Position numbers and translations under genes: made by a program. From contig OX442314.1 of NCBI GenBank assembly GCA_949358305.1, positions 32,240,001 to 32,304,000 of the forward strand: a stretch of 64,000 bases of DNA, written 5' to 3'. Shown here piece by piece: positions 1 through 55,400 of the stretch. Origin of the DNA: Strigamia acuminata. Taxonomy: Eukaryota. Position 1 is the first letter of the stretch. Each line of letters starts with the position of its first letter. The notes under the pieces are model-generated. The model made no database searches, was not told where the DNA came from, and was given only the letters and a program-made list of their open reading frames with translations.

Positions 1-1363
1 AATGTCTTTTGGGCGGCGTCGACTCGCGTCGGTGATGTGAGCGATGACGAGCCTTCTGGAGTGGAGGTAACCCTCCAATGGCGCCTTCCCCCGACGACTG
101 TGTTGGGGAGGAGCGACGGCCACTGTAGGGCGACCTCGATGATCGTGACCTCGACGTGGAGCGCGGCGGCACCACATGGATGGTGGAAGCGACCTGTACC
201 CGGGGCTCAGGCTCTGGATACGGGTTTGGCACGAAATCAGCATGGAAACATCCGCCCATGGCTAGTTGATGCATCTCCGATTGGCATGTCGGCACCTAAC
301 GTTTCTTTCCGTCCGTTGTTACACGGAAAGATTCGTTGTAGAGGCGTACAACCTCGGCTTTGGTTTGATCCAAGCGTTGGAAAACGTCCTCCAAAATCTG
401 TCGACGCTCCCACGCAGGAGCGTTGAAGTAACGGCGATGGTCTCGCGTTTCTTGAGCGATCACTGTGAAGGCGAAGTCGAGCAACACGTTTCGCAGTGGT
501 CCGAAGGTGTCGCGCTTCATTGCCCACTCGAGGGCGTTGCAATGACCGAATCCATCGATTAAATAGGCGATCCGAAACTTCGTTCCCCATCGCTTGTTTA
601 AGGCTTTTGAGAACTTGTGTCGGGCCGCCCAAAACGTCAGTCTTCCTTTAGACTTTATGATCTCCGGTGGCAAAGCGTGTCGCCAGACACCGGGAGCTGT
701 TGGAACATCGGGGTGCAGTTTGAGATGCGTCTCCCGAAGCTGGATGATCTGTAAAATATTCGAAGAAATAATTAAAATCCATTTTTTCGTGTAAAATAAT
801 TATTTCCGAATTTTCAGTGAATAAAATCACGGGTGAGATTTCATTCGACAGTTTAGATTCATTAAATTTTTCAAAATATTTGAAAAATCGTAAGAAACGT
901 TGTTGCCGACGGCTATGTTTCAATGTTGGAGCGTTACCGTAGCAACGCCTCAAAAATGAGACACAGCGCCATCTGATGATAATAATGGCGGCGCCTTCTT
1001 GCGAAGGCGTTACCAACGAACTTTTCGCTTTTTCTGAGTGAAAATGCACTTTTAATTACTTTTCATGACTGAAAGGTAATTTTATTTTAAATTATTTACC
1101 CGGTCGTGTCTCTGTGCACGAGTTTCGCCGTTTGGATCGGCGAATAGGCCTCCTCGAAGTTGTGGTCGGGGCGGCGTGACTGGCAAACGGGCAGCAGCGT
1201 CGGCCAGAGCGGCTTGAGCTTCGGCGGACGCTTCGGCGGACTCTTCGGTGACATCCACGGATGTATTCGAAGTATTTGCGGAACCGAGCAGCGTCGAATT
1301 TGTTTCTAATTCGAGGCTGTTGGCGCCGGCTTCGCTTCCTTCTTTCGGTTCCTCTCCTTCCAT
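1..1363 (-). CDS. Putative spliced accessory (non-Env) gene of element A: coding exon 1363-1100, intron 1099-749, exon 748 to window edge with one in-frame TAG at 298-296
   Basis: CGG|GTAAAT donor and TTTTACAG|ATC acceptor join in phase 0 (RHDR|IIQLRETH) to the 673-296 ORF frame; the frame stays open for ~98 codons after the TAG; upstream 5'UTR intron 1449-1372 (GTAAGT..TTAG). Confidence 0.7.
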
Positions 1364-1572: not shown

Positions 1573-4500
1573 TTACGTTTGGGTAACGTCGCGGTTAGTG
1601 ACGTCATCCAATCTTATTGTTTGATTGGTTTGCGTATGGCTTGGGGAATTGCTCCTTACGTCATACGGCTGATCCCTGGATCTCGAGGTTATCGAGGGGA
1701 GAAGACACATGTTGTTTTTTCCTCTCGGTTTACGAGTCCGAAGATTATATCTCTTTGTCGGCGAGGGATTTATTGTATTTAAATCGCCGTCTTCATTGTC
1801 ATCGGAGACTGAGTCAGATGAGTCTTTTATTTCAGATGTTTTTTGTTTCTTTTCTAAAAACACCTTTTTATTTAATTTTTTAGCAATTTCAAGTTTTTTG
1901 AAACTGTCACGAAGCTCAACGTCGTTATTCACGAGGTCTGACTCCATTTGTGGTTTGGATAAATTATCGACAGGTATTTTCTTTAATTCATCGTCATCTA
2001 ACGTATTAATTATATTTTCAGTCTTTTGACCGACTTCTTCGCCTTCTAACCATACTTCCTGATCGAAACTCGGGAAATACGGAGTTAATTCAGACGAATG
2101 GACAGCTGGAAATATTTCGTTATTTTCTAGCTTTCTCAATTCTACGGATCCTCCCTGTAATACTTTGGTTATTACATATGGTCCTGTTCTTTTATCAGCG
2201 ATGCCAGCTGCAATGCCGCGGGCAGCGCTTGACAAAACATGAGAATCTCTCCAAACTAAATCGTTTAATTTAAAATTGGAGAACTTCTCACCTTCTTTTT
2301 TAAGATTTACTCGTCTGCGCAAATCTAACACGTGTGACATCATGTGTTGATATGTTTCGGCGATAACGGCTTTTAATTTTTGCACGTATAAATGTGGGTT
2401 TTTTGGATCTACGACCAAAATTCCTTCAGGTATTCTTGGATCCCAAGGTACTCTGAGTTCGCGAAAAAAGTTAAGAAATGCGGGAGAGAAGTCTCTTCCT
2501 CTCGTCACCGTAGTTCTCAAACTAAATGCAAATTCACGCAAATATTCGTCCCATTTGGAATGAACAGATGAATAAATTGCAACCAAATATTTGATGTCAC
2601 GGTTAACCCTTTCAACCGGGTTAGCTTGTGGGTGATATGTTGAAGTTGGTGTTGGAACCATCTTGAACTTTTCACAAAATTTTTTAAAGACTTGGGCACG
2701 AAATTGCGGGCCGTTGTCAGAAATAATTTTACGAGGGAATCCCATGCTCATGGAAAGGTGATAAATGCAATTTGCCACTTTTCCTGCAGTAGGGTTACAC
2801 ATTGGATATAATTCTGGCCAATGAGTTGCCACGTCAAGTATGACTAAAATGTGTGTGTTGTTTTTTCGAGTCCGAGGTTTCGGGCCGGTCAAATCAACAC
2901 TTAGGCAGTCAAATGGGCTGTAAGGACCCATTTGCGCTGCTTCAATTTGTCCTTTCGTTCGAGGCTTGCAAGCTTGACAACGCTCGCAATGTCGAATGAA
3001 TCTTGTAATGTCCGATTTCATGCCTTTCCAGGTATAAATTCGGCGTGCTCGATAAAGAGTCCTTGCAATTCCTGAGTGGCCAGAAAGTGGGTGGCCATGC
3101 ATTAGCCAAATAATTTTATACTTCAATGTCTGAGGTACAAAAACTTTGAGTGCTCTCCCATCCTCCCCCAATTCATCAGACATTGTGGGATGAAATTGCA
3201 TTAATAAGTCATCTTCAATTAAGAAGGTGGTTGCGTGTTTTCTGTATTGTTTCCTCTGGAGTCGCGTTGTGACGTCAGGCAGAAATTGATTACAATTTAA
3301 AAAATTACGCATCAATTGGCAAACTTTATCTTCTTTTTGGGCCTTGATTATGTCTTCCCTTGTAGGGGGTTCACAATCAAGACGCTCTACAATTTTGGCG
3401 ACAAATGCTTTTATTAAAACATTTGACGAAGGAATTTGAAATTTCTTTGAAATTTGCGCTCTTATGACGTCATCTGATTCCTCAGAGGGGTCATAAATTT
3501 TAGTCCAATAATTGACGAATTCGTGATCTTCCTTTTCCTCCAGCGTGGAGACAGGAAGTTCATGAAATTTTCCCATTTTCCAATTTCGTTGAGGTGATGG
3601 ACAGTAAGATAATAATTCGTCATTATCTCCATCATCTTCAGGATTTTCCGGTTTGTCAATCGGTGATCTGGATAAAGCATCCGCTAAAACATTTAGTGGA
3701 CCTTTAATATATTGTATTTCGAAAGAGTAGCGCATCAGCTCCATTTGCCAACGCGCTAATCTTCCGGCAGGTTCGTCTAACTGCATCAACCATTTTAGTG
3801 CTTGATGGTCAGTCCTAACTATGAATGTGGTAAATTCCAAATAATGTCGAAATTTACGTAATGCCCAGATTACCGCAAGGCATTCTAATTCTGTGGCGCT
3901 GTAATTTATCTCAGCAGGTTGCAAACTTCTGCTGGCATAAACACAAGGCACTTCGATATTTTGATCATCGATTTCCCTCATTTGCATAAGCGCGGCGCCC
4001 AGTCCTTTTCTGCTGGCGTCGGTATGCACAATAAATGGTTCTGTCAAATCAGGCATGGCCATTGTTTCTGCATTCGTTAAAGCATCTTTTATTTGATCAA
4101 AAGCTTCTTGATGAATTCCTGACCAAATAAATTCCACATCCTTTTTGAGTAAAGGACGTAGAGGTTCCGTCATGACTGCTAGATTCTTGAGTAATCTGTG
4201 AAAAAAGTTCACCATTCCCAAAAATCTTTGCAACTCTTTCAAATTTGAAGGAGCTGGCATTTCTTTAATGGCGGCGACTTTTTTAGGGTCGACACTGACT
4301 CCTTGAACACTTAACTTGTAGCCAAGAAAAGTTAATTCTTTTCTGCCAAATTTTGATTTTCCTGGATGAACATGAAGATTTGCATTTTCAAGTTTACTCA
4401 GAATTTCTTCCAGATGAATCATGTGTTCTTCAAAATTTTTAGATATAATAATTATATCATCGAGGTATGCCCATGCGAATTTTCGATAGGCGTCCCCCAA

Positions 4501-6021
4501 AATTTTTTCTATCAACTTTTGGAAAGTTGACGGCGCATTTACGAGGCCAAAGGGCATGACTCGAAATTGTAGTCGACCCAAAGGGCTCCAAAACGCAGTT
4601 TTAGCACGGTCGTTCGGATGAACCTCTATTTGCCAATAGCCTTTTGACAAATCTATCGTTGTGACCCATTCAAATCTTCCGAGTTCTCGCAAGATTTCCT
4701 CAATGCTCGGCATTTGAGGAGGATCGTATAATGTATGTGCATTGAGTGGTCTAAAATCAATGCAGAGTCTCGGATCACAATCCGGACGCATCACTAGAAC
4801 TATTCGCATTCCATAGTCTCCAGTGGCTTGTTCAACGTACCCATTATCCAACATATCTTGACAGATCTGACGGATAATTTCACGTTTCTGTGGATTTACG
4901 CTTTTAAACGGAACTCTAATTGGAACTTTAGTGTCCAGTTTAATTTCATGCCTAACGAGGTGTGTTCTACCTGGTCGGCGTGATAAAATCTTTTCATGTT
5001 TCTTTAATACTTTTTCAAGCATTAAATTATTTTCCATTGACAAATTAGCGTCGCTAACAAGTCTTTGTACTATATTTTCTTCATTTGCAACTTTAGCTTG
5101 ACACGCAGTGGCAGAGCCAGCTTTCATGTAATTTGCTTTAATAAAGTCGCGTCTCATGATTTCTTCGGGTGGATCAAGGAACTCTTGATAACGATCAAGA
5201 ATCGCTTGAGGAACAAAAGGTAAATCTTCTTTCAAAGACTTGACAAAATTCCAAGACATGGTCTTAGGATTTGGTTGAATATTGAGTCGATTCATGAAAT
5301 CACATCCTAATAAAATAATAGGATATTTATTTCTTAAAATTATGAATGGATGACTTAACATCCCGTGTGTCCACGCAAAAGAAAGTAGGAGAGTTCCTTC
5401 AGGGACTACATCTTCTGAAGCAGTCGTAACTCTCACATCCGGTCCAATTGGTCGAATTTCATCTTCCAGTTTCAACGAAATTACTACGGAGTAGGCCATG
5501 AAGCTTCGATTAGCTCCAGAGTCTAACATCCCTGTTATCATACCGTTTGCCGTCTGCAATCGAATCGTCGGCAAATCATTGCTGTTTGGTATGTCCGCGT
5601 ACTTGCACTTAAAACGTCGCGGTGGCTTAATTTCTATCGGCGGATCTAATGGTAATTCGTCCAATAAATCATTAGTGACTAGCGTTGCAGCCATTAATTT
5701 TTCAATACATTCATCAAGACCAGGTAAATCAATTTTATCTGACCTTTCAATGATTTCAGGTGTTGGCCTAGTTTTTTCATCAATTAAAGTAACAGCATCT
5801 TTTATTTTAGATTCCCAATCAATTTTTATTTGTTGAACTTTTTCTTTAAAAAATTCTTCAGTGATGTTCTCATTTTGCAGCACAAGCCTTAAATTGGAAA
5901 CATCAATTTTTGGAAATATTAAATTATTTTCTAATTCTAATTTAATCTGAGTATTTAAAAAATCATCTAAAATTTGAGATGGTGTTAGTTCATTTTCCGA
6001 GGCGGTAGGCGTTGCATCCAC
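1573..6021 (-). CDS. pol: Pol polyprotein of element A (protease, RT, RNase H, integrase), -1 frame relative to gag
   Basis: LDSGA protease, YLDD RT, TDAS RNase H, HGHPLSGH..CERC zinc finger, D-D(SDNG)-E integrase; uninterrupted 1482 codons. Confidence 0.97.
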   Translation of the reverse strand: MDATPTASENELTPSQILDDFLNTQIKLELENNLIFPKIDVSNLRLVLQNENITEEFFKEKVQQIKIDWESKIKDAVTLIDEKTRPTPEIIERSDKIDLPGLDECIEKLMAATLVTNDLLDELPLDPPIEIKPPRRFKCKYADIPNSNDLPTIRLQTANGMITGMLDSGANRSFMAYSVVISLKLEDEIRPIGPDVRVTTASEDVVPEGTLLLSFAWTHGMLSHPFIILRNKYPIILLGCDFMNRLNIQPNPKTMSWNFVKSLKEDLPFVPQAILDRYQEFLDPPEEIMRRDFIKANYMKAGSATACQAKVANEENIVQRLVSDANLSMENNLMLEKVLKKHEKILSRRPGRTHLVRHEIKLDTKVPIRVPFKSVNPQKREIIRQICQDMLDNGYVEQATGDYGMRIVLVMRPDCDPRLCIDFRPLNAHTLYDPPQMPSIEEILRELGRFEWVTTIDLSKGYWQIEVHPNDRAKTAFWSPLGRLQFRVMPFGLVNAPSTFQKLIEKILGDAYRKFAWAYLDDIIIISKNFEEHMIHLEEILSKLENANLHVHPGKSKFGRKELTFLGYKLSVQGVSVDPKKVAAIKEMPAPSNLKELQRFLGMVNFFHRLLKNLAVMTEPLRPLLKKDVEFIWSGIHQEAFDQIKDALTNAETMAMPDLTEPFIVHTDASRKGLGAALMQMREIDDQNIEVPCVYASRSLQPAEINYSATELECLAVIWALRKFRHYLEFTTFIVRTDHQALKWLMQLDEPAGRLARWQMELMRYSFEIQYIKGPLNVLADALSRSPIDKPENPEDDGDNDELLSYCPSPQRNWKMGKFHELPVSTLEEKEDHEFVNYWTKIYDPSEESDDVIRAQISKKFQIPSSNVLIKAFVAKIVERLDCEPPTREDIIKAQKEDKVCQLMRNFLNCNQFLPDVTTRLQRKQYRKHATTFLIEDDLLMQFHPTMSDELGEDGRALKVFVPQTLKYKIIWLMHGHPLSGHSGIARTLYRARRIYTWKGMKSDITRFIRHCERCQACKPRTKGQIEAAQMGPYSPFDCLSVDLTGPKPRTRKNNTHILVILDVATHWPELYPMCNPTAGKVANCIYHLSMSMGFPRKIISDNGPQFRAQVFKKFCEKFKMVPTPTSTYHPQANPVERVNRDIKYLVAIYSSVHSKWDEYLREFAFSLRTTVTRGRDFSPAFLNFFRELRVPWDPRIPEGILVVDPKNPHLYVQKLKAVIAETYQHMMSHVLDLRRRVNLKKEGEKFSNFKLNDLVWRDSHVLSSAARGIAAGIADKRTGPYVITKVLQGGSVELRKLENNEIFPAVHSSELTPYFPSFDQEVWLEGEEVGQKTENIINTLDDDELKKIPVDNLSKPQMESDLVNNDVELRDSFKKLEIAKKLNKKVFLEKKQKTSEIKDSSDSVSDDNEDGDLNTINPSPTKRYNLRTRKPRGKNNMCLLPSITSRSRDQPYDVRSNSPSHTQTNQTIRLDDVTNRDVTQT

Positions 6022-6054
6022 TAGACCGTCGGGATGCGCGCTTACAAGTTTTTT
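6010..6054 (-). promoter_or_regulatory. -1 ribosomal frameshift signal (A AAA AAC plus GCATCC/GGATGC stem)
   Basis: Heptamer at 6054-6048 is in the gag frame two codons before its stop; the -1 frame runs open into pol. Confidence 0.8.
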
Positions 6055-8936
6055 AGAAGTTCGCCGATTGATTTCATCGATTTTTCGAACTCCTCAATAA
6101 TCTTGTCTTTGCTCGTTTTCCTATCAGGACATTCTTTAGCCCAATGTCCTAATTTTTTGCAAATGTTACACGGGTCAGTAGCAGGTGATTTTGCGACTTT
6201 TGGCGAAGGCGAACTTGAGCGTTTGGCTTCGTCCTTTTTCGGGGTCGGCGACTTCGATCTACTGAGCGCGTCTGTCTTTGGTAAACCAAAAGTAACGTTT
6301 TTAGGCGCCATCTTTGGTCCAAATTTTCGAGCTACTGCGTTATTACGGGCTAATAAAGCAGCTGCAGCCTCGCTTTCTGGTTCCGAGTCAGATTTCTCTG
6401 GTTCAGAAGCAGCTTCCATATCTGTCACTTCGGCTAAGTGAGCTTTAGGGGTTGGATGTGGATTTTTCCCATCCGATCCCTTTCTAGATTCCTTAGCAGT
6501 CTCTGCCAAAAAATCTCCTCGTTTTGGGGGTTGCAAAAGAGGGGTGTTAGCAAAACGTGTGTCTTTTGCCAACTCCTTTCTCCGTTGCTGTCGCTTAGCG
6601 TACGCAACTTTTTCATCAGCTGGTAGATAAGCTTTATAATTTTCGTCAATCCTTATCTGATTAGCTCGCATAAATTTGGCTAATTCAGCGAAACCACCCG
6701 GATAAGGTGCTCGTACAGAAAGTAGAACATTTTTTGAGTAATCTGTCAATCCACGACGGAATTGACGATCAATGGCTGCGTCTCCCATCGTATAAGGGAG
6801 AGTGACCAATAAATCCTCAGTCCTTCTTAAATAAGAGCGAAGACTTTCGCCTTTATTTTGAGAAAGATTATCCCACATTTGTAATAAGTCTTCACTTGAC
6901 TCTCCATACTCAGTCATGAATTCTTCTACAAAGTGGTTCCAGTTTTGAAATTGTTTAGAATAAAACCATTTCTCAGCTCGATCTATAAGAGCTTTTGGTA
7001 CTACTCTTTTCAAAGCAGTGTGACATGCAATGCCATTCAACCTTGAAATTCGTAAAACTTCATCTAAAAGAGTGGATCCAGCTTCCCATTCTCCATCGAA
7101 TAAAGCGGGTTTGATGTGATCCCATCTAATAGTTCTTTCATCAACTAGATCGTGCGTCCAGTTGTTGGCAGTGTATTGAGCAATTTTCTGTCGTAGTGCA
7201 ATGTCAGCATTATCGGCAGTAGCGTCAGATCGATCGGAAGATCGACGATCAGCTAATAATCGATCAATTTCTTCAGCGGTGTAATAATGAGTATTACGCC
7301 GAGAAGAATGGCCTCGATGTCGACGTCGATGAGATCGATGTCGATTATCGCGTTCTTGTTGCGCATTCACATCAGAATCCGACCTTGAATCAGATTGTGA
7401 ATTTGAAGGCGTGTTAAAATGTGGTGTTTCAGGTGGGTCGGGTGGGTCGCCGTCATCGTCTGGCGGTCGACGTCCACCTCCAGGTGGTCCATCTCCGTGT
7501 CCATCTGGATTTCCTCCATTTGGTGGATTTCTTCTATACTGACCCCCACCTGGCGGGCTTTCATGTCCGTCGGGTGGTTCGCGTGCTGGATTCGTGTCTC
7601 GTCGACTTCTTTTCGACGAGTCTTGCTGTTGAGCCAGTGGTATCGTTCGAGTAACATGAATACCAGTTTCATGCCGTCTATTTTGATCATCTACCATTCC
7701 CAACAGTCGGTCACTGTTATGAAAAATAGGATTTCGATTTCCAGGGAGCGGATTGCGATCAGCTCTCCGTTCCTCGGAATCTGAAGGACGTTTTCTTTTT
7801 GAGCGATGGCGGCGACGCGAACGTTGGTCGTCATCACTCGATAATCCAGATTGGCTACTTAACTCTGAAACAACAGAAATTGTTATTGTTTCGGGAGTCA
7901 AAATAGGAACAGTTGGCGCAGCCATTTCTGGTTGTACCAATTGGTCAGTATAATTTCTTGCTTGCAAACGATCTTTCATTTCTGCAAGCTCCTCTTGAGC
8001 GCGCAACAAATCAGCTCGGAGAATTTCATTCTCATTTATTTCATTTTGCGATTTTTCTGGTTGTAATCGCTTAGCAGGGTCGCTAGACTTGACTTGTCCG
8101 CTCGTACTGGGTTGATCCAGCGAGTGGAAAATCTCGTCTTCACGCTTAGCTATTTTGCTTTCGCGAGTACGCTGTGTTTTAGCACGTGTGTCTAATTCAG
8201 CAGCATATCTCACTAGTTGATTATGATTGCGTTGGTAGTGATCTGCCAAATCAATCAACTCTTTATTTTTCTGCTCTAACTTACTTTTGGTAAGTTCGAG
8301 CTGTCTTCGCGCCTCTTGGTGTGAGCGAATTGAAAGTTCATTTCTAGTATTCATTTTAGAAAGATCTTCCACTTCACCTTTTAATCTGTATTCTCTAGCT
8401 TTTTGGGCTAGAAATTCCTCATTTTGTCGATTGAGTTCCATATGTTGGAGCTCAACCTCCGCTTTTTGTTGTTGAAGCTCAGCTTGTTTTCGCTCCATTT
8501 CAAATTGTAAATTTGAAACGGCGCGGTCAGTGTGAAGTCGTATCATGGCGCGATGAATCTCTTCCACCGTCATGTCGTCCGTTATTTGGGCGCCATCTTG
8601 GCGTGCTTGATTTCTCAAAGCATCCAACATGGTCATGCGAGGAGGTGATTCGTGAGACGATTCACTTTCCATTTCACGTAACGTATTTTCCACTTCCTCC
8701 AGTGGAAGTGGCGGGAGTTCTTGTTCGTTAGAACTCGCACTTGATGCGCTCAGGGCTCGAGCAACCTCATTTTCAGCATCCTTAAGTTGTTTCGGATCTG
8801 GAACTGGTGTTATTTCTTCAGAAATAACTTTTTCCATAAGCATTTCAGGCTCGAGAGCCGGCAAAACCGTCGCTGCTCGTTTCTGAGTGCTTGGTCGACC
8901 TCGCTGTCGTTTTACAATTTGCATTGGCGTCGCCAT
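6042..8936 (-). CDS. gag: Gag of element A (964 aa: N-terminal coiled coil, capsid-like region, CCHC knuckle)
   Basis: CNICKKLGHWAKEC knuckle; LSQNKGESLRSYLRR major-homology-like motif; ATG directly downstream of the PBS. Confidence 0.93.
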   Translation of the reverse strand: MATPMQIVKRQRGRPSTQKRAATVLPALEPEMLMEKVISEEITPVPDPKQLKDAENEVARALSASSASSNEQELPPLPLEEVENTLREMESESSHESPPRMTMLDALRNQARQDGAQITDDMTVEEIHRAMIRLHTDRAVSNLQFEMERKQAELQQQKAEVELQHMELNRQNEEFLAQKAREYRLKGEVEDLSKMNTRNELSIRSHQEARRQLELTKSKLEQKNKELIDLADHYQRNHNQLVRYAAELDTRAKTQRTRESKIAKREDEIFHSLDQPSTSGQVKSSDPAKRLQPEKSQNEINENEILRADLLRAQEELAEMKDRLQARNYTDQLVQPEMAAPTVPILTPETITISVVSELSSQSGLSSDDDQRSRRRHRSKRKRPSDSEERRADRNPLPGNRNPIFHNSDRLLGMVDDQNRRHETGIHVTRTIPLAQQQDSSKRSRRDTNPAREPPDGHESPPGGGQYRRNPPNGGNPDGHGDGPPGGGRRPPDDDGDPPDPPETPHFNTPSNSQSDSRSDSDVNAQQERDNRHRSHRRRHRGHSSRRNTHYYTAEEIDRLLADRRSSDRSDATADNADIALRQKIAQYTANNWTHDLVDERTIRWDHIKPALFDGEWEAGSTLLDEVLRISRLNGIACHTALKRVVPKALIDRAEKWFYSKQFQNWNHFVEEFMTEYGESSEDLLQMWDNLSQNKGESLRSYLRRTEDLLVTLPYTMGDAAIDRQFRRGLTDYSKNVLLSVRAPYPGGFAELAKFMRANQIRIDENYKAYLPADEKVAYAKRQQRRKELAKDTRFANTPLLQPPKRGDFLAETAKESRKGSDGKNPHPTPKAHLAEVTDMEAASEPEKSDSEPESEAAAALLARNNAVARKFGPKMAPKNVTFGLPKTDALSRSKSPTPKKDEAKRSSSPSPKVAKSPATDPCNICKKLGHWAKECPDRKTSKDKIIEEFEKSMKSIGELLKNL

Positions 8937-9008: not shown

Positions 9009-9026
9009 ATCCCGGACGGGCCCCCA
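9009..9026 (-). promoter_or_regulatory. Primer-binding site, tRNA-Pro type
   Basis: TGGGGGCCCGTCCGGGAT, 2 nt after the LTR end; 17/18 to the MLV-type tRNA-Pro PBS TGGGGGCTCGTCCGGGAT. Confidence 0.9.
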
Positions 9027-9028
9027 AG

Positions 9029-10092
9029 TGCGGCGATCCGGGTTTTTACTTATTAAATTATATAAATTCAATAAGCAATCGTCGTAGAGATGCCGTACAG
9101 GACTTCTACTCTGTGGCCAAATGTTTGTCTAGGGGAATGATTTTACACAGAGTAAAGGAAAAATTAGATAGTTTTAATCGTTCAAAATACAAAGGAGGTA
9201 TTATTTAAAATGTTTGGGGTCGATCTGGCTTCTTCTTCAAATGTACACTCACAGTTGACCGTTGACTCCAAGATGGCGTCGATGGCGTCGTGTGAGCGCG
9301 GGATTTTAGCGGAGTAAACTCGACGCTAAAATACGTTGCTAAAATATACTAAAATCCTCGTGGAGCACGCTCGACACGAGAATACGTCTTGCACACAGCG
9401 GTTCGATTATTACGGAGCAAGCTCGACGTAACAATCGGTCTTTACACAAATCGCTTTGTGGAGTTAAACTCGACACAAAGCCTCCAAACTAACAGAGTAA
9501 ACTCGATGTTAGTTTCACACAGAAATGGCTTAAATTACACGTAGTAATTCAAGCTAGAAAGTTGCTATTCCGTACAGTGGGTACAGACCAGCGATGAAAC
9601 TCAATTCGTCCAAGAATCACAGATCACACTTTGCAGTTTTGGCAGAAGTTTGACACGGTTGTGAACAGTTTGGAGGTGGAATCAAGAGTGCGGGAAGAGT
9701 GGGCCAAAACCGTTTGGCTCACTCCTAAATCTGCTCAGAAAAGCTGCGCAGATGACGAGTTGCACAAAGATCACACACGGCCGCCCTCGGGTCGTGTGCA
9801 ACAACTGAGCCGGGCACGCGCGAGGGGAAGGGATGCTCCGCCCAGGCACACGCCTAGCAGCATCATCAAAGCAATGCACGCTGCAGCGCGATTGGTTGAC
9901 GCTGTTGCTGGGCCAAAACTTGCTGCAAAACACAATATTATTTGGGTAATATTGTGTCTTGTTTTATATTTTATTAATGTATGTTTTATTTCAATTTACA
10001 TTGAAACAAAACATATAAGCTTGTTGAATATGTTTATAAGACAATTTGGAAATATGGTGCGCACTCAAATAGGAATATTTGAGGTCACCACA
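9029..10092 (-). repeat. 5' LTR of element A (1064 bp)
   Basis: TGTGGTGAC...CGCCGCA termini; colinear with the solo LTR at 43492-44565. Confidence 0.95.
9303..9515 (-). ncRNA. Array of five TAR-like bulged RNA hairpins within the LTR (cis element)
   Basis: Five different stems (6-10 bp), each capped by UC bulge-GAG-loop-CUC; pairing preserved in the diverged solo LTR. Confidence 0.8.
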
Positions 10093-26842: not shown

Positions 26843-26844
26843 CG

Positions 26845-26862
26845 TGGTGCCGAAACCCGGGA
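26845..26862 (+). promoter_or_regulatory. PBS, tRNA-Phe
   Basis: TGGTGCCGAAACCCGGGA, complementary to the 3' 18 nt of animal tRNA-Phe. Confidence 0.92.
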
Positions 26863-33434: not shown

Positions 33435-34805
33435 ACACCTTCTTTTTCTGCTTTTAAAGTGTTTTTTGTGATTATTAATTTATTTCTTAGCATTGGTTGC
33501 ATTTTTAGCTGAGTTTTGGTGTTTGTAGAATTTGTTTACATTGGAATGAGTGTGTTGTTGTGTTTTTTCGTGTATTTTTACTAATCTCTAGTTTTTGACT
33601 ATTTATTACTAATTGCGGTTTTTTCGTCGACATTTCGGAGGGAGATGCGGAGTTAAAACTCTTTTCTTTTCCGTTCGAGATGGAGACGCGACCTGTTGTC
33701 GATTTATTTTGATTTTTGTGAGCGTTTGGTGTTGGTTTTCATGCTCGTTGTTGGTTGCGCGTGTGTGGTCTAGTTTACGACAGATGGCGCCGGAGTGTCT
33801 GGTGTCATCTGACCGATGACCTCACTTTTCAATCAGTGTCTGGCGGCCATATTGTATTCGCGGCTTAACACAGTGCGCCTCGTGTCTTCGCGTCTCTGAC
33901 ATTTTCAACGCGAGCCAAGCCACAACTGAGCGTGGAAGTCCGCCAAAGCGCGTTTAATACGTTTGTAACATTAACTGTGAGTATTATTGTGGTTTTCACT
34001 GAAAAATTGTAAATTTTGACCTACTCGAGCAACATGTGTTTTTTCATAAGTGCAAAGTTTTAGGGTTAAATTTTCCCCGAACGCGTACTGAAGTGTTAGA
34101 GCTGCTTTTTTGTTAATCTCTTGTCGGTATATCGCGTTAGTATTGTTTAGAATGCTTCGCTATTAATTGTCAAGGCGTATCTAATTGTTAGGAAAATTTA
34201 GTATTTTTGTTTAGTTTCACTTTTCAAAATGCAAGATGGCGACGCATCGCTTTGAAAATTTTCCATCAGGTCATGTGATGTCCGCCATCTTTGGTGGAGT
34301 ACCCGTATGCGTGTAGATGGACTTAGCCAATTTTTTGAGCTCATGTATTTTGTAGTGATAAGTCTGCACGCGACCGCTATTTCCTGTTCGCGTTTGCTTC
34401 CTAATTTGATACGATAGTTACGATGAATTTTGTACATCTTTGTGAGGATTTTGTGCTGTTGTTAGATGCATTAATTAATATTTTTTCCCCAATATTATAT
34501 TTTTGTTTTGGGCTATTACGCGTTTGTATCTCGTTGATTCTCATCGTGATTCCATTTCACGTGATTTGCTTTGCAATCTTTATTACTGCTGTTATTTTTA
34601 ATTGCGAATACCTTTTTTGGTTAAGCTATGAATTGTTATGTGAACTTTATCGAGTAATTTTTTATAATCCGCGTTATTAGCCCATGTTTTTATTGTTGTA
34701 TTTATTTGCTCTTGCTCGAGTGGTGTATTTTTTGTTGTTTGATTCTTTTATTGATTTTTTGATTTCTGCTTTTGTGACTGAATTTAGAAGTGATTTTCAA
34801 TCGTC

Positions 34806-36680
34806 ATGACTGGACGAGGCAACGGAGTACGACCGCCGTGGCGAGGAGGGAAAAACGGAAAGAATAAGACAAATGTTGAGACGCGCCGCCAGCGACAGGC
34901 GCGTGAGCGCTATGTTTGTCCCTACCCTGTGCCGCGATTGTTTGAGACGGGGCCCATCTTGATGCCAAACTATCATCCTGACCACCCTATGTGTCGCGCC
35001 TTCCCGAATCGCGAGCTTTGCCCTGTGTGTTCGGGGTGGGGTCATCTCCATCGAGGCGTGGACGAGTGCTTCGCGTGCGAGGGATTTGGAAATTTGCGTC
35101 GAGCTCAATTTAAAATATGGATGCGACGTATGCAGGCCCTTTGTTTAGGAGAAACGATGGCGGATGGGAGAGACATTTCGTTTTATGTCCTGCCCGATAC
35201 TTTCCAGCCGCTTTTGGGTGCCGCGTCTGACTGCAATCGCTTCATTATCCAACACGAGGCCCATTGGCGCAATACTATCCAGAGAGCCGCCACCATGGGA
35301 GTGCGTCCGCACAATTGGCAATATCCTCCTTTGGGGTGTTTAGTCATGGCACCAGGCACGGTGACCCCCGAGTTGCCTTCCTATTTTCGTCAGTGGGCCC
35401 CTATGGTCCGAGGGCAGTCCAATCGTGTGCCGCCGATAACATCGCGTCTCCATTCTCAGGCGCATCAGCGGCGGGATAACCCACGAGCTCCTGTTGTGGT
35501 TGGGCGTGCGCGTTTGGCTGCTGAGGACGAACGTTTGCGACGAATTGGCGAGCGAAACGCCCATTTACTGGAGGACATCGTCCAGCTGCAGGGGCTCCAG
35601 CGTCAGGTCCGGGATGGATTTGTAGCCGCAAGAGCGGCGCCTGATTTGCCTGCTGCCGTTGCTGTGTTGTCGGAGCGATTGGCGCCGAGTTCGTCTCAGT
35701 TTTTCAACGTCGCTTCTGGTGTAATGGTCCCCCAATGTCGACCAGTGCCTACGTTACAACGTGTGCTGGAGGTTCCACCGGCCCAGGTGAGCGAGATAGT
35801 GGATGATTTGCCAGAGGTTTGCGTAGTTCCACCGCCAATTGATGAAGCGGCCCTATCAACCGCGCTACTGCCGGTTGGGCGACCTACCTGTGACATGGAC
35901 GAAATAGCGACCCCTTTTGGTGTGAACTTGCGACGGGATTGGGCTGAGACCGACATGGAGTGGCTAATTCGATGCCACGACGAGGCGACGCGCCGTCGCG
36001 AAGCCGCTTTTCCAGGAGGAATGGTTCCTCGTTCTTCGTCCTCCCAATTGGAGCAGTCGTTGGATTATGTTGGGGAGTTGCCCAATTTGCGCGTTTGCTT
36101 GACTGACGCCGGACGGGATGTTGAGTGTTTACCGGAGTCGTCGGATGATGAGGAGGACGATAATGCGCGTCCGCGACGACAGCTTCTGCCTGTTTTCACT
36201 GGTCGTCCAGTCCAGCATGACCTGCCGTTTCCAACTCAACCCGAGGACTTGACGGCCGCAATCAAGAAGGTGATTGATTTGCAGCATCGGAAGCGAGATT
36301 TTGTTACGGTTCGTGAGCTCGAGCTGTATTTTGAAACGATTATGGCGCGTGCGACCTTCGACTCGCTTTTCCCCATGGGTGCCCTTGAATGGGAAGGTCC
36401 ATCGCGATGGCGCACGGACACTTATTTGGAGGCCGATGCTTCGCGTTGGAGAGAGTTTTTCTATTTGGTGGTGAAGAAAGAGCTTGGATTGCCGGAGAAC
36501 GTCGCGGCAATAGTTCATTTGCTCGGGGAAGGCCATATTCGCGTGTTGCAGCAATTAATCGCGGACACTTTGACTGAATTCCGCCCGCGTTCCGAGCAGC
36601 AGCTGGGCGATGTTATTACCTACCGCGTTCTTACACTCATGAAGGAGCTTGTGACAGCTGTCACCGGCTATGAGTTTTAA
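34806..36680 (+). CDS. ORF3 of element C: 624-aa non-Env accessory protein with two CxxCxGxG motifs
   Basis: Intact ORF inside the LTRs; CPVCSGWG and CFACEGFG; no signal peptide or TM segment evident; putative Inr at 33833 and 5'UTR intron 33977-34787. Confidence 0.85.
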   Translation: MTGRGNGVRPPWRGGKNGKNKTNVETRRQRQARERYVCPYPVPRLFETGPILMPNYHPDHPMCRAFPNRELCPVCSGWGHLHRGVDECFACEGFGNLRRAQFKIWMRRMQALCLGETMADGRDISFYVLPDTFQPLLGAASDCNRFIIQHEAHWRNTIQRAATMGVRPHNWQYPPLGCLVMAPGTVTPELPSYFRQWAPMVRGQSNRVPPITSRLHSQAHQRRDNPRAPVVVGRARLAAEDERLRRIGERNAHLLEDIVQLQGLQRQVRDGFVAARAAPDLPAAVAVLSERLAPSSSQFFNVASGVMVPQCRPVPTLQRVLEVPPAQVSEIVDDLPEVCVVPPPIDEAALSTALLPVGRPTCDMDEIATPFGVNLRRDWAETDMEWLIRCHDEATRRREAAFPGGMVPRSSSSQLEQSLDYVGELPNLRVCLTDAGRDVECLPESSDDEEDDNARPRRQLLPVFTGRPVQHDLPFPTQPEDLTAAIKKVIDLQHRKRDFVTVRELELYFETIMARATFDSLFPMGALEWEGPSRWRTDTYLEADASRWREFFYLVVKKELGLPENVAAIVHLLGEGHIRVLQQLIADTLTEFRPRSEQQLGDVITYRVLTLMKELVTAVTGYEF

Positions 36681-37260
36681 GGCGCGTCCCGTTAAGTGAA
36701 AGTGACTTTTTTCCGGAATTGACTTTTCTGTGTGATTAACGTGACTTTTTTCCGCGTAATCGAACGCGAAGTTTAGTGCTTTTGATGCGGACATTTTGTT
36801 TGAACTTTTTGCCTGATTGTGAAATTTTTATTTGTGCCTTTTGATCGCGTGTAAATTTTTGAAGTGTGAGATTTGATTCGCTTGTGTTGTTGAGTCCACG
36901 CGAAGTTTCGCGCCTCACCCTTGCGTTTTTGATTTTTGTTTTCCTTCCGCGATCTTAAGATTTTCTTATTATAGTGTATATTTTCTTTTTTGTAGTGTTC
37001 CCGAGCGTCGCGATCTTAGTTAAGTGATTTATGCACCATGTGCATCTGTGCCTGGCGCTTAGGCTAGTAATGTTTTATTTTGTGTTTTCGGCGCTTAACG
37101 CCTGTGTGTATTGTTGAGTCTACGCGACAATCCTCGCGCCTCATAATGTTTGTTTAATTTGATTGATCATTCCAATTGATATTTTGTTTTTGTATCGCTT
37201 TTTATTTTCTTTACTTTTCAGATTTGTTTCGAGAATAAAAACACTCTCGTCCGAGGGGCG

Positions 37261-38270
37261 TGTCACGGCCCGGCATTAACGCGTAATGTAACTTTAACCC
37301 ATTGTTGTGTTTGTTCGCGTTTTCCGTGAGTTCCTAGCTATGATTTGTTATCATTGTTTTGTTAAAACTCCCAATAAATCCTAAACCTAATATAATTTGA
37401 GTTTTGTCCTACCTTTATTTCCTATTCATGTTTATCCTTTGATTTGGTCTGGTGTGGCTCAATTCTGCCACATCAGACTAGTCTAAGTCGTGTATTTCCT
37501 ACTGTTACCCCTCCTAATTTCGTTTAGTTCATCCTATCTAATTTAAATGTTTAGTCACTCGCGACTGACTCATCGCGATGATTATTCACGAGCGCGCCTG
37601 ATTGGCTTACGCGTGCTTGACTCATGGTTCTCCCCTCGTTTTCTGTGATGGACTTGGCCCAAGTTCACTTCTGAGCTGTTTCAGCCAAGTCTGATCAGAA
37701 GGCGTAAGACCATGAGCTATCGTAAGTGCCTTAACTGGCCGTTGTGCATTTGGCGACTTTTCCTGTGTTAATTCGCAGTAACTCCATGCCACGTAATTGT
37801 GCATGTTTGAGTATATCCATTATCATATCGCGTGTCTAAATTCCGCGTGTCATCTTTGATTCCTTTCCTTTCGATGTTCTTTTGTGTTTACACGACGTTT
37901 TATGCCGCTGACGTGCCTCTGGACTAGAAATTAGATTCAAGTAGCTAATGAGTTGTTTATTTCGTCTTTTGCGCGCGATTAGTGCGCGCTTGCTCGGTCT
38001 GGCCGCTCCGCCATTAGGGGTCCCTGCCAGATTAGCTTAAGCCACGTTAGCGTTGTTAAGTCCGCACGTGAGCATTACTTCTTCCACTTTTAAGGCTCCA
38101 ACAAACTCGGTAATAATTCGTAACATGATCGAATAGGGGGTTAAGCTTGCCGCCACCCTTCAGGCTGCTTAACGTTGCCGGGCCCTTATTCGGGACCAGG
38201 CTCTCTTGTATCGTAACTGGCGCGTCTTTCAAACGCGGTTTCAAAGACCAGAAACAACCGGTTCATGACA
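37261..38270 (+). repeat. Element C 3' LTR
   Basis: Near-identical to 25833-26842; followed by ACAC TSD. Confidence 0.97.
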
Positions 38271-42964: not shown

Positions 42965-43491
42965 ACCTCGCGCAATAAGGCAAAAGAAATATAGAAACTT
43001 AAATTTGTTTTTGTGTGTTTTCAACTAATGTGTAAATTTACGATAATCGAAATGATTCATTGTAAAAGCAATAAAGCATAGGTGGCGCTGCTAAACGACA
43101 AATTAGCATATTGTGAAATGCAGGGAAGTGAACATACAAGTATAAGTAATAGTTTATGACATTTTATTTATTTAAGCAACATACAGTTCATGAATTTTCT
43201 TTTTCTTGCAGATTTAATTAGGACAAATCTGAAACGGAATTATAAAAATTGAATAAATAAAATAGAACAGAATAAAGTAAAATAGAATGAAATAAAAATA
43301 ATTTTCTCAAGCAATTCGGCGTTGTCAAGACAGTAGAAAATCCCGCACACTACGATACCTGGCAATTTCGTTTCACTTTTCGAAACATTTATTGAAACCC
43401 CACTTCCGCCCGGTCGGAATCGCTCCGACTCCCGCCTATATCAAGTCACATTTCCAAAACATTTGCTTGGCGATATTTTTACTTACTTCCT

Positions 43492-44565
43492 TGTGGTGAC
43501 CTCAAATATTCCTATTTGAGTGCGCACCATATTTCCAGATTGTCTTATAAACATATTCAACAAGCTTATATGTTTTGTTTCAATGTAAATTGAAATAAAA
43601 TATATATTAATTAAATATAAAACAAGACACAATATTACCCAAATAATATTGCGTTTTGCAGCAAGTTTTGGCCCAGCAACAGCGTCAACCAATCACGTTG
43701 CAGCATGCATTGCTTTGATGATGCTGCTAGGCGTGTGCCTGGGCGGAGCATCCCTTCCCCTCGCGCGTGCCCGGCTCAATTGTTGCACACGACCCGAAGG
43801 CGGCCGTGTGTGATCTTTGTGCAACTCGTCATCTGCGCAGCTTTTCTGAGCAGATTTAGGAGTGAGCCAAACGGTTTTGGCCCACTCTTCCCGCATTCTT
43901 GATCCTGCTTCCAAACCTTTCACAACCGTGTCAAACTTATGCCCAAACTCGCTAAGTGTGATCTGTGATATTGGAAGAATCGAGATTCATTGCTGGTCCG
44001 TGCCAACTGTACGGAATAGCGCCTTTCTAGCTTGAATTACTACGCGTAATTTAAGCAATTTCTGTGTGTAAATTGACATTGAGCTTGCTCTGTCAATTTG
44101 AAGGCTTTGTGTTGAGTTTAACTCCACAAGGCGAACTGTGTTAAGACGGATTGTTACGTCGAGCTTGCTCCGTAATAATCAAACCGCTGTGTGCCAGACG
44201 TATTCTCGTGTTGAGCTTGCTCCGCGAGGATTTTAGAATATTTAGAGGCGTATTTTAGCGTTGAGTTTACTCCGCTAAAATCCCGCGCTCATACGACGCC
44301 GTCGACGCCATCTTGGAGCCAACGGTCAACTGTGAGTGTAGGTTTGAAGAAGAAGCCAGATCGACCCCAAACATTATCTTTTTGAATAATACCTCCTTTG
44401 TATTTTGAACAATTAAAGCTATCTAATTTTTCCTTTTACTCTCTGTGTAAAAATCATTCCCCTAGACAACCATTTGGTCACAGAGTAGAAGTCCTGTACG
44501 GCATCTCACCGACGATTGCTTGTTAAATTTGTATAATTTAATAAGTAAAAACCCGGATCGCCGCA
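43492..44565 (+). mobile_element. Solo LTR of family A (1074 bp)
   Basis: TG..CA ends, TCCT 4-bp TSD, diverged colinear match to 9029-10092. Confidence 0.95.
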
Positions 44566-46499
44566 TCCTTTGCAACGCACTCGAGGAAAGCATTTTCATT
44601 TTGTGTCACCTATTTAAAAAGTATAACATAATTAGTATTTTGAAGAATGTATAATTATTGAAGAGAATAAACCACGTACACTATGTTTTGGAAATTAAAT
44701 AACAACTACATTTTATATTGTTTTATATCGATTGTATAGTTTAAATGCATTTTCGAGTAATATCGCTAGCAATATCAATTAATATCACCTCAATGTTTAT
44801 AATATCGAAAAACGAATTCCTGTACTCAGAAATAAACTCATTAGTTGTTTCATCCTCATAAGTCTCAGTGCTCGCACCGCGCAGTCGACGCAGCAGTGGA
44901 AGAAATGAACGTTTAATTTAACCTTCTCACAGCCATGGTGGGGTCAGAAAAATAACAAAAGTAGCAAAATAACTCTAACTCTTTTATTCCTAAAAATTAA
45001 TTTAGGGGACCAGCTTTAATTCCTCCAACTGTGAGCGAAAATCGTGAGTACACGTTGTTGTGTTTTTTTTGGACTGAAATTTTAACTCAACGAGGTACGA
45101 CGACGACTATTTGTACAGATTATTTGTAAAGTTGGTTACGCTCTCACCACAGAAAAAAAATGTATTAAAGTAAAAATATAATACATAATAGGAACAGTTC
45201 TAACTTATGACCGCCAGACAGCACTACTATGTTATTAGGCAGGAGACCACATCTACAGTACCTCTTAACTGAACGCTATTTCAACCAAGACACATTACTC
45301 GCTCAAATATTGGAGGTGTTAAAAGATCAACATTCCAAAAATTTCATTGACTTTGGTGTATACATCATGTAAATATTGGGAGTTATATTGTAAACTGGTT
45401 CATTCTCTCCAATTACTCATTTTTCATAATGTGCGGATAACGCAGACAAAGATATAATTAAAATTTTTATGAAATTAGAGATTCAATCGACAGGGTATTT
45501 GAGAATTGGCTACATTGACATTCTTTGGTTGTTTTTTGCCATGCACTGAATATTCTCTAACATAGTCACAATCAGATTGGCCAAAAAATTGACTGCTCAA
45601 GTCTCAATAAGACATCTTCACAGGAGGCAGCAGAAATTATTACATGCAAAAAAAAATAAAGAATCTCAATTTTTTTTTTCTTCTGAGACATGTTTAAAAA
45701 TTCTGTTGGCAGATTGCACCATTCTGGGAAAATTTTTCAAGTAATATCTGCACATTGTTTCATGTTACTGCTTTTATAATGCTATTGAACTAACAAATGT
45801 TGCCACAACATTACAATTATTAGTGCTTTAACACCGTTTTACACGTCTTATTTTTAGCACTGTAGATCTTGTACTACAATTTTGAATACTGAATCGGATG
45901 ATTTCGTAAAAATCTTAATAGTGATATCTTTGTATGCCTGGTCCTGTAAAACGTATTAATAAAACTAAAAACTCTATACCAAATATGCACATGCTGTTAA
46001 AGCAGCTACAACCGGAATTTTATCCTGAAAAACAGAGTTTATTTTGAAACACATGAAGATACTTTTGAATAGTCTACAGGTATAAACGAGTATTTAATTT
46101 GCGAGACCCACTTTGTTTTCACTAAAGAACATCTCAACCTGGAGTAGATTTCTAGGTTCTCGTAGTTCTCGACATATGACAACGGGGCCCTCCCAATGCC
46201 GAGAGTTAGAATTTCGATAAAAAATAAAAATTTGAAAAAAATAATTTAGAATTATATTTTTAAATAGGACCCTTAACCTAAGGCGTCTATAAAAGGGCCA
46301 CACAAACCATAAATCTGCAACTAGAGTCAACTCCTAAATGAAATTAATTGAGGCATCACCAGCTCACTGTAGGAGGAATCAGACATTTAAGTAAGCAAAG
46401 ACGGAGTCTTTTGATGTTGTTGCGACCCCGGACAAGTCAACGGTACTTGCAAAGGTCGGCAGTGAGCGGGCGTAGCACGACACCACCGCCAATGCACTA

Positions 46500-52437: not shown

Positions 52438-55400
52438 ATGTTGGCTGAGCGGCGTGCTCTGCCTCGACGGGACCCGAGTCTGAGGTCGAGCGCCGGCCCC
52501 GATCTGAGCACGCCATGCGCCGCAGCGGCGAACGACGGCAACACCAACAACTTAGCCGTCGCGCGTGCTCCAGGTTCGACGTCTTTCGTCCATTAAATCC
52601 AATTTCTAATATTTTTTTCCAGACTCGCCGAGTGTTCGTCACCGCCTGCTGTCGCCGCGGCTGGGCCCGACTCGCACCGGAAGCGACCCGGCGCTCGTGG
52701 CGCACGATTCGCGGCACTCGGTGTCGGTTCTGTCCGCGAGTTGCAACTCGCACGTTTTGCCGAGTTCGACGCCTCTGGTCGTCACGTGGGACATCGTGGA
52801 GGATGTCAGCACGAGCGATTGGATAGGGCTGTATAAATTAGGTGATTATCACGTGGTTGGTTGGGTGCGGATATCCTGTTGGAGGCCGAAAACGGTTGAT
52901 TTCCTTCGCGAACCCGGAACCGGTCACGATGATCGTTTGCGCCCTCGGGCTGGAGGATGTGGAGAAGTGGTCTTGAGTGATGTGGAGACGTCGGTGGAGT
53001 TTTGCGCGTCGAAATGCATTTAATTGTCGATGTTTTCGGCGGTTTGGAGCGAGATGGAACGTGTTTTTGTTGTTGTTTGTGTAAATTTTGTCTAAAAAAA
53101 ATTTTTTTTTTTATAATTTTTTTTTATAATTTTTTTTTATAATTTTTTTTTTTTGTTTTTTTAGATGAGACGAATCCGTTTCACTATTTGGAGTATAAAA
53201 ACCAAGGTGTTGGAGGGTTCCATAAGGGGCAGATTATGTGGATGATCGACTGCGATTATCATTTTACTGAAGGTTTTGATTTTGTGGATTTTTTGAATAA
53301 ATTTTGATTTTTTTGGTTAATTTTTTGTTTTTTTTGTTTTTTTGTTTTAGATATCACGAATATTTGTTTCAAATATTATCACGGAACAAGTGGTGCCTTG
53401 CGAGCTGTTACACCGCCCATTCGAGTGCTGAAAAGCACGGTGGAGTCGCCCGAGCAGGCCGAAAGCCAAAGTGTGATTGACACGTCGCTGATGGGATATT
53501 CAGCATGGCCGGATCTTGCAGAAATCCTGAAATTCAAAGTTTTTGGTAAAAAATAAGAAAAATAGAAAAATATAACAAACTCTAGTGAAAAACTAGTAAA
53601 AAACATCATTTAAAACAAGAAATTATTAAGGAATGTCATAGATATCGACATAAAGTGAAAGGAAATTGTTAAAATCATCAAAAAATTGAAAGGAGATCGT
53701 AAAAATCAAGAAAGAATGAAAGGAAATCGTAAAACCAACCGAGAAAAATGTTTTAAAAGAATGAAAAAGCGAAGCAATAATTAAAGAATTTGATTTTGAC
53801 AGGTTTACACGCATGGTCGTTGAAGAAAGGCATGTTTTTTAACCCCGATCCGTACGTAAAAATGAGCATTCAGCCCGGCAAAGCACCCAACTCGCTGCCA
53901 ATGCCGCACCACGGCCAGGAAGTGCGCACGCGCATCGCCGAAAACACTATCAACCCCAGCTGGAAACACCAAGTAACAAAACAATCCACAAAACACAAAA
54001 ATAAAAAAAATAAAAAAAATTTCAGGAATTTTCGTTCATCGCTTACTCATCGGACGCCATTGAATTCGAGGTCAAGGATAAATTTGCCAAGAGCCGTCCA
54101 ATCATCAGTAGGTTTCTTGGCAAACTCACTGTATCTGTCCACACATTATTTAACCAAGCTAATAGGTAACAAAATTCAAAAATAATTCAAAAATAATTCA
54201 AAATAAATTCAAAAAAACCTTTTTTAGAGGAACCACCGAGTTCCAGTTTAGTTTATCGAGTAAAACGCCTTCAGATCACGTGACGGGTCAACTCAGCTTC
54301 TGCATAACCATTTTAAAACGCCCAGGTACCGAAAAAAAACCAAAAAACCCAAAAAAACTAACAAAAACCTCAATTCCAGACGCGTGGCCCACGAACCAGA
54401 CGCACCCGATGCCTTATCTGCACGACATCGACGACGGCGGCCAAGCAAGCTCGAACCCCAGCACCCCCCGACGCCACAAGTCGGCCCTCCGCGCCGCCTC
54501 GCTCCCCAACGGCTCCACCAACGGCTCCGCCAACCCCGACGCGCCGACCCCGGACGACCAAACCCCGTGCTGCAGCAACTCCATCTCCCTCTCGGAGCCC
54601 ATCGGCGGCCCCGACTGCGAAAACCTGCGCAACGGCTGCTGCTTCGACCACGACGACTCCCCGATCTGGAAAAGACGCACCCCGGAAGTGATGAACCCGA
54701 CGTACTTCGAGCTGAGCGCCACGCCGAACGGTCGCTGCCCGTCGGACGACGACCTCCCGCCGCCGCTGCCGCCGAAAACGAAGAAGAAAGCCGTGCACAA
54801 GCCCCTCGAACGGACCAAGGGGCTCTACTACAACAACCCGGGCCCGTTCGGGGCCCCCAAGGGCGGCGCGGCCAAGCCGGAAGACAGTTTCATCCTCGAG
54901 ATAGTGGACACGGACGAGCTGGAGCGCGGACGGCACCGCAGGGTGCATCGTGAAGTGGGCAAATGTGCTGCCACGGCGTTTCCCGAATTCACGGACGAGC
55001 AGAACAAATCCATCCAGGCGCGCGCGACCGACGGCGACCCGTGCCCCGCCAGCCCCGCCAGCCCCGCGCCCCTCATCGACAACCGCGACTTGAATCGCGT
55101 TCACGTGGCACCGCTAGCAACGCCCGAACACGATTCATTGCAGGAGGGGTGTCCGTCCATCGAGAATCTGACCGACCCCGAACCCGAACCCGACGAGGTG
55201 GTCGAAATCGAGGAAATTCGGACCGAAAACGAAGAAATTCGGACGGAAAGCGACGAAATTCGGACCGAAAACGACGAAATTCCGTCGGAAAACGTTGAAA
55301 TTCCGTCGGAAAACGTTGAAATTCCGTCGGAAAACGCGGAAAACGATGAAATTCGGACCGAAAACGAGGAAATTCGGGCGGAAAACGCGGAAAACGATGA

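Follow-up and report, generated by a model that had tools for sequence, protein, structure and literature searches.

The long terminal repeats (LTRs) of a Ty3/gypsy retrotransposon in the Strigamia acuminata genome contain an array of five predicted RNA hairpins, whose RNA structure is very probably maintained by selection and which, by analogy with known arginine-binding RNAs, is likely to act as an arginine-pocket protein-binding array. The window (the whole 64,000-nt stretch of DNA analysed) is repeat-rich animal DNA, with one host gene of short introns and a WW-like segment, read from its translation, at ~52600-56400. The array occurs in it twice, in a solo LTR and in the 5' LTR of a full-length element (Table 1). 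Assignment of the element to Ty3/gypsy is based on its TG...CA LTR, target-site duplication and primer-binding site, and on gag followed by a pol with the order RT-RNaseH-integrase; the relatives of single Pol domains are gypsy-type, with an identity of at most ~42-45%. The primer-binding site is presumably of the tRNA-Pro type. Global alignment of the two LTR copies (9029-10092, reverse complement, against 43492-44565) yielded 72 substitutions in 1062 aligned columns. These are unevenly spread, since 10 of the first 400 columns differ versus 62 of the 662 later ones (43492-43891 vs 43892-44565; p = 7e-6), which suggests either a mosaic LTR (one U3 combined with different R-U5 subfamilies) or a promoter half under stronger constraint. 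At 43479-44569, contigs of three sequencing runs (X1, X2 and X3) span the site of the solo LTR without the LTR and with other letters between, and an insertion-free form of this site therefore exists, which means either that the insertion is polymorphic or that the empty site is paralogous.

Two further repeat structures are present in the window. A second young gypsy element (25833-38270, forward strand) has LTRs that are 99.9% identical and lack the hairpin array, a pol that is divided between two frames, and an additional open reading frame of 628 codons (ORF; 34794-36680) with no Pfam match. Direct repeats of 2152 nt (10260-12411 and 16158-18309; 99.9% identical) flank a 1326-codon ORF (16728-12748, reverse strand), which begins inside one of the repeats and likewise has no Pfam match; the repeats contain an internal duplicated GC-rich structure (11564-11759), and the 5' LTR of the array-bearing element lies just beyond them.

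Table 1. Positions in the window of the element, its LTR hairpins and its predicted signals and exons
Feature	Position	Strand	Description
Solo LTR	43492..44565	+	TG...CA ends, 1074 nt, 4-bp target-site duplication (TCCT)
5' LTR of full-length element	9029..10092	-	3' LTR of the element lies beyond the window start
Primer-binding site	9009..9026	-	directly 3' of 5' LTR
gag	6042..8936	-	Retrotrans_gag, CCHC knuckle, two Arg-rich stretches
pol	1573..6093	-	domain order RT-RNaseH-integrase
Hairpin array, solo LTR	44070-44281	+	five predicted RNA hairpins
Hairpin array, 5' LTR	9303..9515	-	bulges UC in 5/5 hairpins
Hairpin 1	44070..44099	+	9-bp stem, UU bulge, GAG/CUC, CUUG loop; three double-compensatory pairs vs 5' LTR
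Hairpin 2	44104..44132	+	8-bp stem including one U-G, UU bulge, 5-nt loop
Hairpin 3	44149..44180	+	10-bp stem, UC bulge, CUUG loop; outer pair of 5' LTR version broken
Hairpin 4	44202..44231	+	9-bp stem including two U-G, UU bulge, CUUG loop
Hairpin 5	44252..44281	+	9-bp stem, UU bulge, UUUA loop
CCAAT and GC box	LTR positions 198 and 250		upstream of candidate initiator
Candidate initiator TCAGTT	9803..9808 (LTR position 285)	-	one base different in solo copy; fits AUG depletion
Predicted major splice donor GTGAGT	44332..44337 (LTR position 841)	+	located 3' of array; no other consensus donor in the two LTR copies; motif scan
Candidate poly(A) signal ATTAAA	44412..44417 (LTR position ~915)	+	kept in both copies
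Predicted accessory exon A	1100..1363	-	AUG at 1363, acidic and Ala-rich, donor at 1099
Predicted cassette exon B	938..1033	-	96 nt, splice consensus
Predicted accessory exon C	296..748	-	open for 150 codons, same phase as exon A
Open Ser/Arg-rich frame	1..295	-	continues past window end

All five hairpins in each LTR copy have the same plan, namely a lower stem of 8-11 bp, a U(C/U) bulge, an upper GAG/CUC helix and a loop of 4-5 nt. The core pattern RTYGAGYNNRCTCY has eight matches in the window, where 0.09 would be expected, and all of them are inside the two LTRs; hairpin 2, with its 5-nt loop, falls outside this count. Units 3-5 of the array are duplicates. The stems of sibling hairpins vary in sequence while the core of GAG/CUC and bulge U stays fixed, which argues for a protein-read site on a variable scaffold. 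Additional LTR hairpins were found at 43567-43658, 43860-43887, 44030-44056 and 44433-44548; one extra hairpin directly precedes the array, and a pair of AT-rich hairpins near the 5' end of the LTR has a z-score of ~-5.7 on the sense strand versus -2.8 on the antisense strand.

The arrays of the two LTR copies (9515-9303 vs 44070-44281) differ by 24 substitutions in 213 positions, the direction of which is unpolarised. Changes affect 9 of 60 linker, 8 of 92 lower-stem, 2 of 10 loop-closing-pair, 1 of 11 loop and 4 of 5 second-bulge positions, but none of the 35 core positions (0/5 bulge U and 0/30 GAG/CUC), in agreement with the original prediction that GAG/CUC is invariant. The individual changes that it had listed are likewise present: two double-compensatory pairs in stem 1 (44073/44096 and 44075/44094), one A/G difference in each of stems 2 and 4 (44130 and 44224) that results in U-G on the sense strand, the switch of bulges 1, 2, 4 and 5 from UC in the 5' LTR to UU in the solo LTR, and CUUG in loops 1 and 4 of the solo copy. 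Two differences had been missed. The UUUA/CUUG difference at loop 1 represents a third double-compensatory pair (U-A to C-G, 44084/44087), which can lengthen the upper stem to 4 bp, and in the solo copy the terminal bases of stem 3 (44148/44181) fail to pair. The comparison of pairing-preserving with disruptive changes, which had been proposed as a check, thus yields three double pairs and two G-U wobbles against one broken terminal pair. When all 24 changes were shuffled over the array, the probability of at least three double pairs was 0.006 and that of at most one broken pair 0.0003; the corresponding values were 0.001 and 0.0006 when the 10 paired-site changes were shuffled over paired non-core sites, all four assuming independent changes and thus being optimistic if template switching or conversion linked them, as the compensatory pairs could have arisen jointly by such events. 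The joint switch of four of the five bulges (p ~3e-5) points to conversion between sibling hairpins or to selection at the subfamily level.

Further copies of the array were obtained from contigs of three sequencing runs (two studies) that contain the element. The solo LTR region is covered by 1717, 597 and 417 contigs in these runs, at a depth far above that of the junction contigs (depth is not copy number), which shows that the element belongs to a multi-copy family; run X6 contributes a single contig, which covers just the end of the LTR. For the array, 34 variant rows are listed, and all of them were mapped onto the structure. As proposed in the original prediction, extension to other copies revealed less variation in stems (9 of 92 positions) than in linkers (17 of 60; Fisher p = 0.004), a single variable core position out of 35 (p = 0.002), which comes from one low-depth contig, and three variable second-bulge positions out of five. 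Among the nine variable stem positions, two belong to stem 3, where they make up the loose outer pair. Another three are single pairing-compatible changes (two to G-U and one from G-U to A-U), two are partners in one stem-5 pair that changes from A-U to G-C if both occur in the same molecule, and the last two correspond to the 3' side of the double changes in stem 1, for which the rows list no 5' partner. All eight indel rows are in linkers or at stem edges. The variant table drops differences near contig ends, and may therefore under-count dense stem changes; its incompleteness is evident from the fact that it lists no loop change, yet the two window copies differ in their loops. Letters of the solo type (bulges, stem-2 wobble and 3' arm of stem 1) recur in other contigs and hence look like subfamily variants rather than decay of the solo copy. 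By eye, contigs of more diverged subfamilies near 9522 and 9362 include a copy that resembles hairpin 2 but has a loop of 4 nt; in one, the second bulge base is A, and the core is intact.

Covariation among siblings follows the same structure. Among 14 pairs compared across nine distinct hairpins, 9 vary in both partners, and 92.9% of cells are paired; the covariation score is reached by 0 of 500 shuffles, and slid controls pair at 38-46%. The structure was itself derived from these sequences, whose rows form related pairs. The original prediction had taken the sense-strand wobbles as an argument for selection on RNA structure rather than on DNA palindromes. Selection on the sense-strand RNA is backed by the permutations, the sibling covariation, the variants of other copies and a depletion of AUG, but the wobble argument itself is weak: two single transitions yielding G-U have p ~0.25, and the distinct wobbles (four in the two copies, with no A-C, plus one in other copies) have p ~0.03-0.06. 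Whole-array z-scores of the solo copy do not separate the strands (antisense -3.58 vs -3.46). Taken singly, its hairpins 2-4 are 4-6 kcal/mol more stable as RNA on the sense strand, and hairpins 1 and 5 have DNA folding energies that are alike on both strands. The suggestion that some UC to UU changes reflect CpG decay is not supported, as the window has a CpG observed/expected ratio of 1.29, CpG-linked transitions number 16 versus ~12 expected, and the G of the same CpG is changed in none of the five hairpins.

Independent support for the RNA level is provided by a strand-specific depletion of AUG triplets. From LTR position 285 to the start of gag (866 nt before the gag AUG), the sense strand contains no AUG where 12 are expected, a result seen in 0 of 2000 shuffles, and no other of the 64 triplets is as strongly depleted in this stretch; the antisense strand has 12. 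The sense strand is in fact AUG-free from position 231, the first AUG after position 230 being that of gag, and the solo copy contains one AUG versus 12.7 expected. The LTR and leader of the other full gypsy element in the window contain 15. The ~345 nt upstream of the array are AUG-free as well (0 vs 4.5, p = 0.002, with a boundary chosen post hoc); LTR positions 1-284 are mildly AUG-poor (4 vs 8.7), and the border of the depletion is not sharp. This depletion implies that the array is likely to lie within a long mRNA leader. Transcription probably starts near LTR position 285, with an AUG-based estimate of 290-350 nt upstream of the array, which would place the array at roughly +290 to +500 of the predicted transcript, in a long R region upstream of the donor and the poly(A) signal; an array within R would occur at both ends of the RNA. 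The leader is ~870 nt long and hairpin-rich, and the array precedes the primer-binding site by ~275 nt.

The fixed core has the arrangement of the arginine sandwich of HIV-1 TAR. According to the accessible text on TAR, bulge U23 caps the A27-U38 pair, the base of the sandwich is A22, and the arginines make contacts to G26 and G28 (PMC6189040). All 10 hairpins have U, G, A and G with paired C, U and C at the equivalents of U23, G26-C39, A27-U38 and G28-C37, and the base preceding the bulge, equivalent to A22, is always a purine (A for hairpin 1, G for hairpins 2-5), although this core comprises only ~8 nt and the likeness to TAR was drawn post hoc. By analogy, we infer that the bulge U forms a U.A-U triple and thereby an arginine pocket; the hairpins would then resemble the TAR pocket in their working without being a TAR element. 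The possible fourth upper pair and the location in an LTR are further similarities to TAR. In contrast to TAR, the array has five copies instead of one, a 2-nt bulge, and loops of 4-5 nt instead of a hexaloop, and it is probably located ~290-500 nt from the start site; moreover, the translated accessory frames of the element contain no Cys-rich Tat-like segment. An Rfam scan returned six weak matches at E up to 10, with no TAR family among them. The match to the 23S-methyl motif (RF01065) was rejected, with 18.8 bits and an E-value of 5.2 against a gathering score of 50 bits; the stretch 44144-44235 weakly resembles this bacterial motif, in whose second hairpin consensus a bulge likewise precedes GAG, a CUUG loop and CUC. 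Stem-loop 1 (SL1) of 7SK, which is bound by HEXIM, similarly clusters several bulges of the arginine-sandwich type in one RNA (PMC6189040 and PMC10083321, accessible text), but does so in one stem rather than in separate hairpins, and with GAUC/GAUC rather than GAG/CUC.

Consensus splice sites between pol and the end of the window, with predicted acceptors at 1371, 1033 and 748, define three predicted accessory exons (A, B and C). By a codon score trained on gag and pol, exon A appears coding, with the same value as in-frame pol (0.24 per codon), and the result for exon C is ambiguous. Exon B scores as coding in the frame of exon A, where it starts with a basic KKRKV-like stretch and contains two stops, whereas its open frame, in which a hydrophobic stretch comes after an Arg run, scores as non-coding. 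The exon C protein has no Pfam match and no homologue (its best match among PDB sequences has an E-value of 0.056, and its Atlas matches are all <0.9), and its AlphaFold model has a pLDDT of 43 and no fold match; sequence searches revealed no recognisable similarity of the predicted accessory protein to Rex, Rev or Tat, and none of any ORF to Rex or Rec. Just past the pol stop (1560-1500, reverse strand), a repeated TCACTT and a CACGTG box precede a donor at 1449, and this stretch may be an internal promoter that serves the accessory ORFs.

The reading that we favor, tentatively and with slightly less than even confidence, is that the array is a multivalent dock for an Arg-rich protein from the predicted spliced 3' ORFs, which would promote unspliced RNA in the manner of Rex on its response element (RxRE). 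The accessory protein, presumably spliced from the ORFs 3' of pol, would dock on the five hairpins via their arginine pockets and thereby favor unspliced genomic RNA. Its output would be export or protection from splicing rather than elongation; this is speculative, as is the identity of the bound protein. A need for such an export system follows from the predicted leader donor and spliced 3' ORFs, since unspliced RNA must nevertheless leave the nucleus. Baskerville et al. (1995) reportedly described the Rex-binding element as two TAR-like half-sites. The word TAR does not occur in the accessible text of PMC3601003, and a hairpin aptamer for Rex has a 4-nt loop and two bulges (PMC4615301, PMC4053799). 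RxRE and the HERV-K Rec-response element (RcRE) are located in U3/R or R/U5 of the LTR, and Rex must multimerise and acts via an arginine-rich domain (PMC3434621, PMC3185809, PMC2577329; accessible parts). The array shares with HTLV-1/2 Rex-RxRE and HERV-K Rec-RcRE a structured LTR RNA near the splice donor and poly(A) region (both predicted here), plausible multivalent binding and predicted spliced 3' accessory ORFs. It differs in belonging to an env-less-looking Ty3/gypsy retrotransposon rather than a retrovirus, and in consisting of plain tandem hairpins instead of the branched fold of 255-428 nt given in the accessible descriptions. A further parallel is the C. elegans LTR retrotransposon Cer1, whose own CERV protein, neither Gag nor Pol, is required for export of unspliced genomic RNA (PMC10309623); here such a protein is predicted only. 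A leucine zipper and a Cys-rich loop characterise CERV, and the accessible main text of that paper (PMC10309623) does not contain the terms 'response element', 'stem-loop' or 'cis-acting', whereas here it is the RNA element that is evident.

Several observations count against this Rex-like dock. The array is upstream of the predicted donor, so that spliced RNAs would carry it too; the basic stretch of exon B is short and, in the frame with the coding score, runs into stops; Gag has Arg-rich stretches of its own; the antisense fold has a similar z-score; and the second gypsy element has an extra ORF but no array. A Tat/TAR-like role, in which the pockets recruit a basic protein of the element to nascent RNA for Pol II elongation or for read-through of the poly(A) signal in the 5' LTR, is unlikely but merits consideration. 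The core is closer to TAR than to the arginine sandwich ASM3 of 7SK, including an equivalent of G28-C37, which is touched by the second Tat arginine (PMC6189040, accessible text), the array is 5' of a poly(A) signal that the 5' LTR must ignore, and the 5' LTR has an initiator-like CCATTTC ~12 nt upstream of hairpin 1. However, the hairpins lack the apical hexaloop that CycT1 and Tat bind in TAR (PMC10083321, accessible text), the AUG-free ~345 nt upstream of the array suggest a start far upstream, and the accessory frames are devoid of the Cys-rich domain of Tat. Docking of the Arg-rich segments of Gag, serving RNA selection for particles or a switch from translation to packaging, would make use of a protein that is intact, certainly needed, and equipped with two Arg-rich 12-mers and a CCHC knuckle, at a position in the 5' leader before the primer-binding site. 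We consider it quite unlikely, because an array that precedes the predicted donor and is probably part of R would not tell genomic from spliced RNA, and because it lies 5' of the primer-binding site, whereas retroviral packaging signals are usually 3' of it.

Binding of a host factor would make an accessory protein unnecessary: the array may mimic 7SK as an arginine-sandwich bait for HEXIM or another Arg-rich regulator, or may act in translation through the ~870-nt structured leader. This is an improbable reading, even though the leader is long and rich in hairpins and the accessible text reports a common secondary structure for TAR and 7SK ASM3 (PMC6189040), since the hairpins resemble TAR in having G-C as their third upper pair, in place of the GAUC palindrome described as the hallmark of 7SK (PMC10083321, accessible text), and the avoidance of AUG suggests ordinary scanning. 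A neutral or DNA-level origin, namely that tandem duplication, palindrome correction by template switching and conversion between siblings produced the paired changes at the DNA level without RNA selection, appears very improbable. It would account for the duplicated units 3-5, for the parallel switch of four bulges, for both stem-1 pairs, which one repair event could fix, and for the strand symmetry of hairpins 1 and 5. Palindrome correction, however, should remove the bulge and the G-U pairs, and both remain in all 10 hairpins; in addition, the contrast in variability between core and linker, the absence of A-C mismatches from 80 stem pairs and the strand-specific depletion of AUG argue against it.

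Relatives of the array were sought with a DNA pattern of three cores in a row, which occurs at 5 loci in viral contigs and 69 distinct loci in metagenome contigs. These 74 loci were rejected as relatives, given that only two (L021 and L041) have at least two cores with a lower stem of at least 5 bp, and both are tandem repeats with near-identical stems; no pol-like match was found near any of the 74. The repeat of L021, a metagenome contig locus (778-1492, reverse strand), consists of seven units that fold as bulged GAG/CUC hairpins with stems of 7-9 bp. A pol search in viral contigs and a blastn search against phages gave no match, Gag had no homologue at E 1e-5, and the matching titles and abstract openings in the literature, a scope that leaves out most subscription papers, describe no such array.

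Protein-binding RNAs of the TAR and RxRE types are known from complex vertebrate retroviruses, and export of unspliced RNA aided by an element's own protein is known mainly from complex retroviruses. It is possible, although we regard it as doubtful, that an invertebrate Ty3/gypsy element independently evolved the switch of complex retroviruses, with a five-site array of the TAR type, a small spliced regulator of its own, and subfamilies that retune the bulge (UC/UU) in concert. If the Rex-like dock is correct, the array copies would provide a natural library of compensatory variants for studies of arginine-RNA recognition, and the array would supply a cis element of a kind that is unnamed in the accessible main text of the CERV paper (PMC10309623), and would represent convergent evolution of an arginine-pocket switch outside Retroviridae, in an invertebrate LTR retrotransposon.
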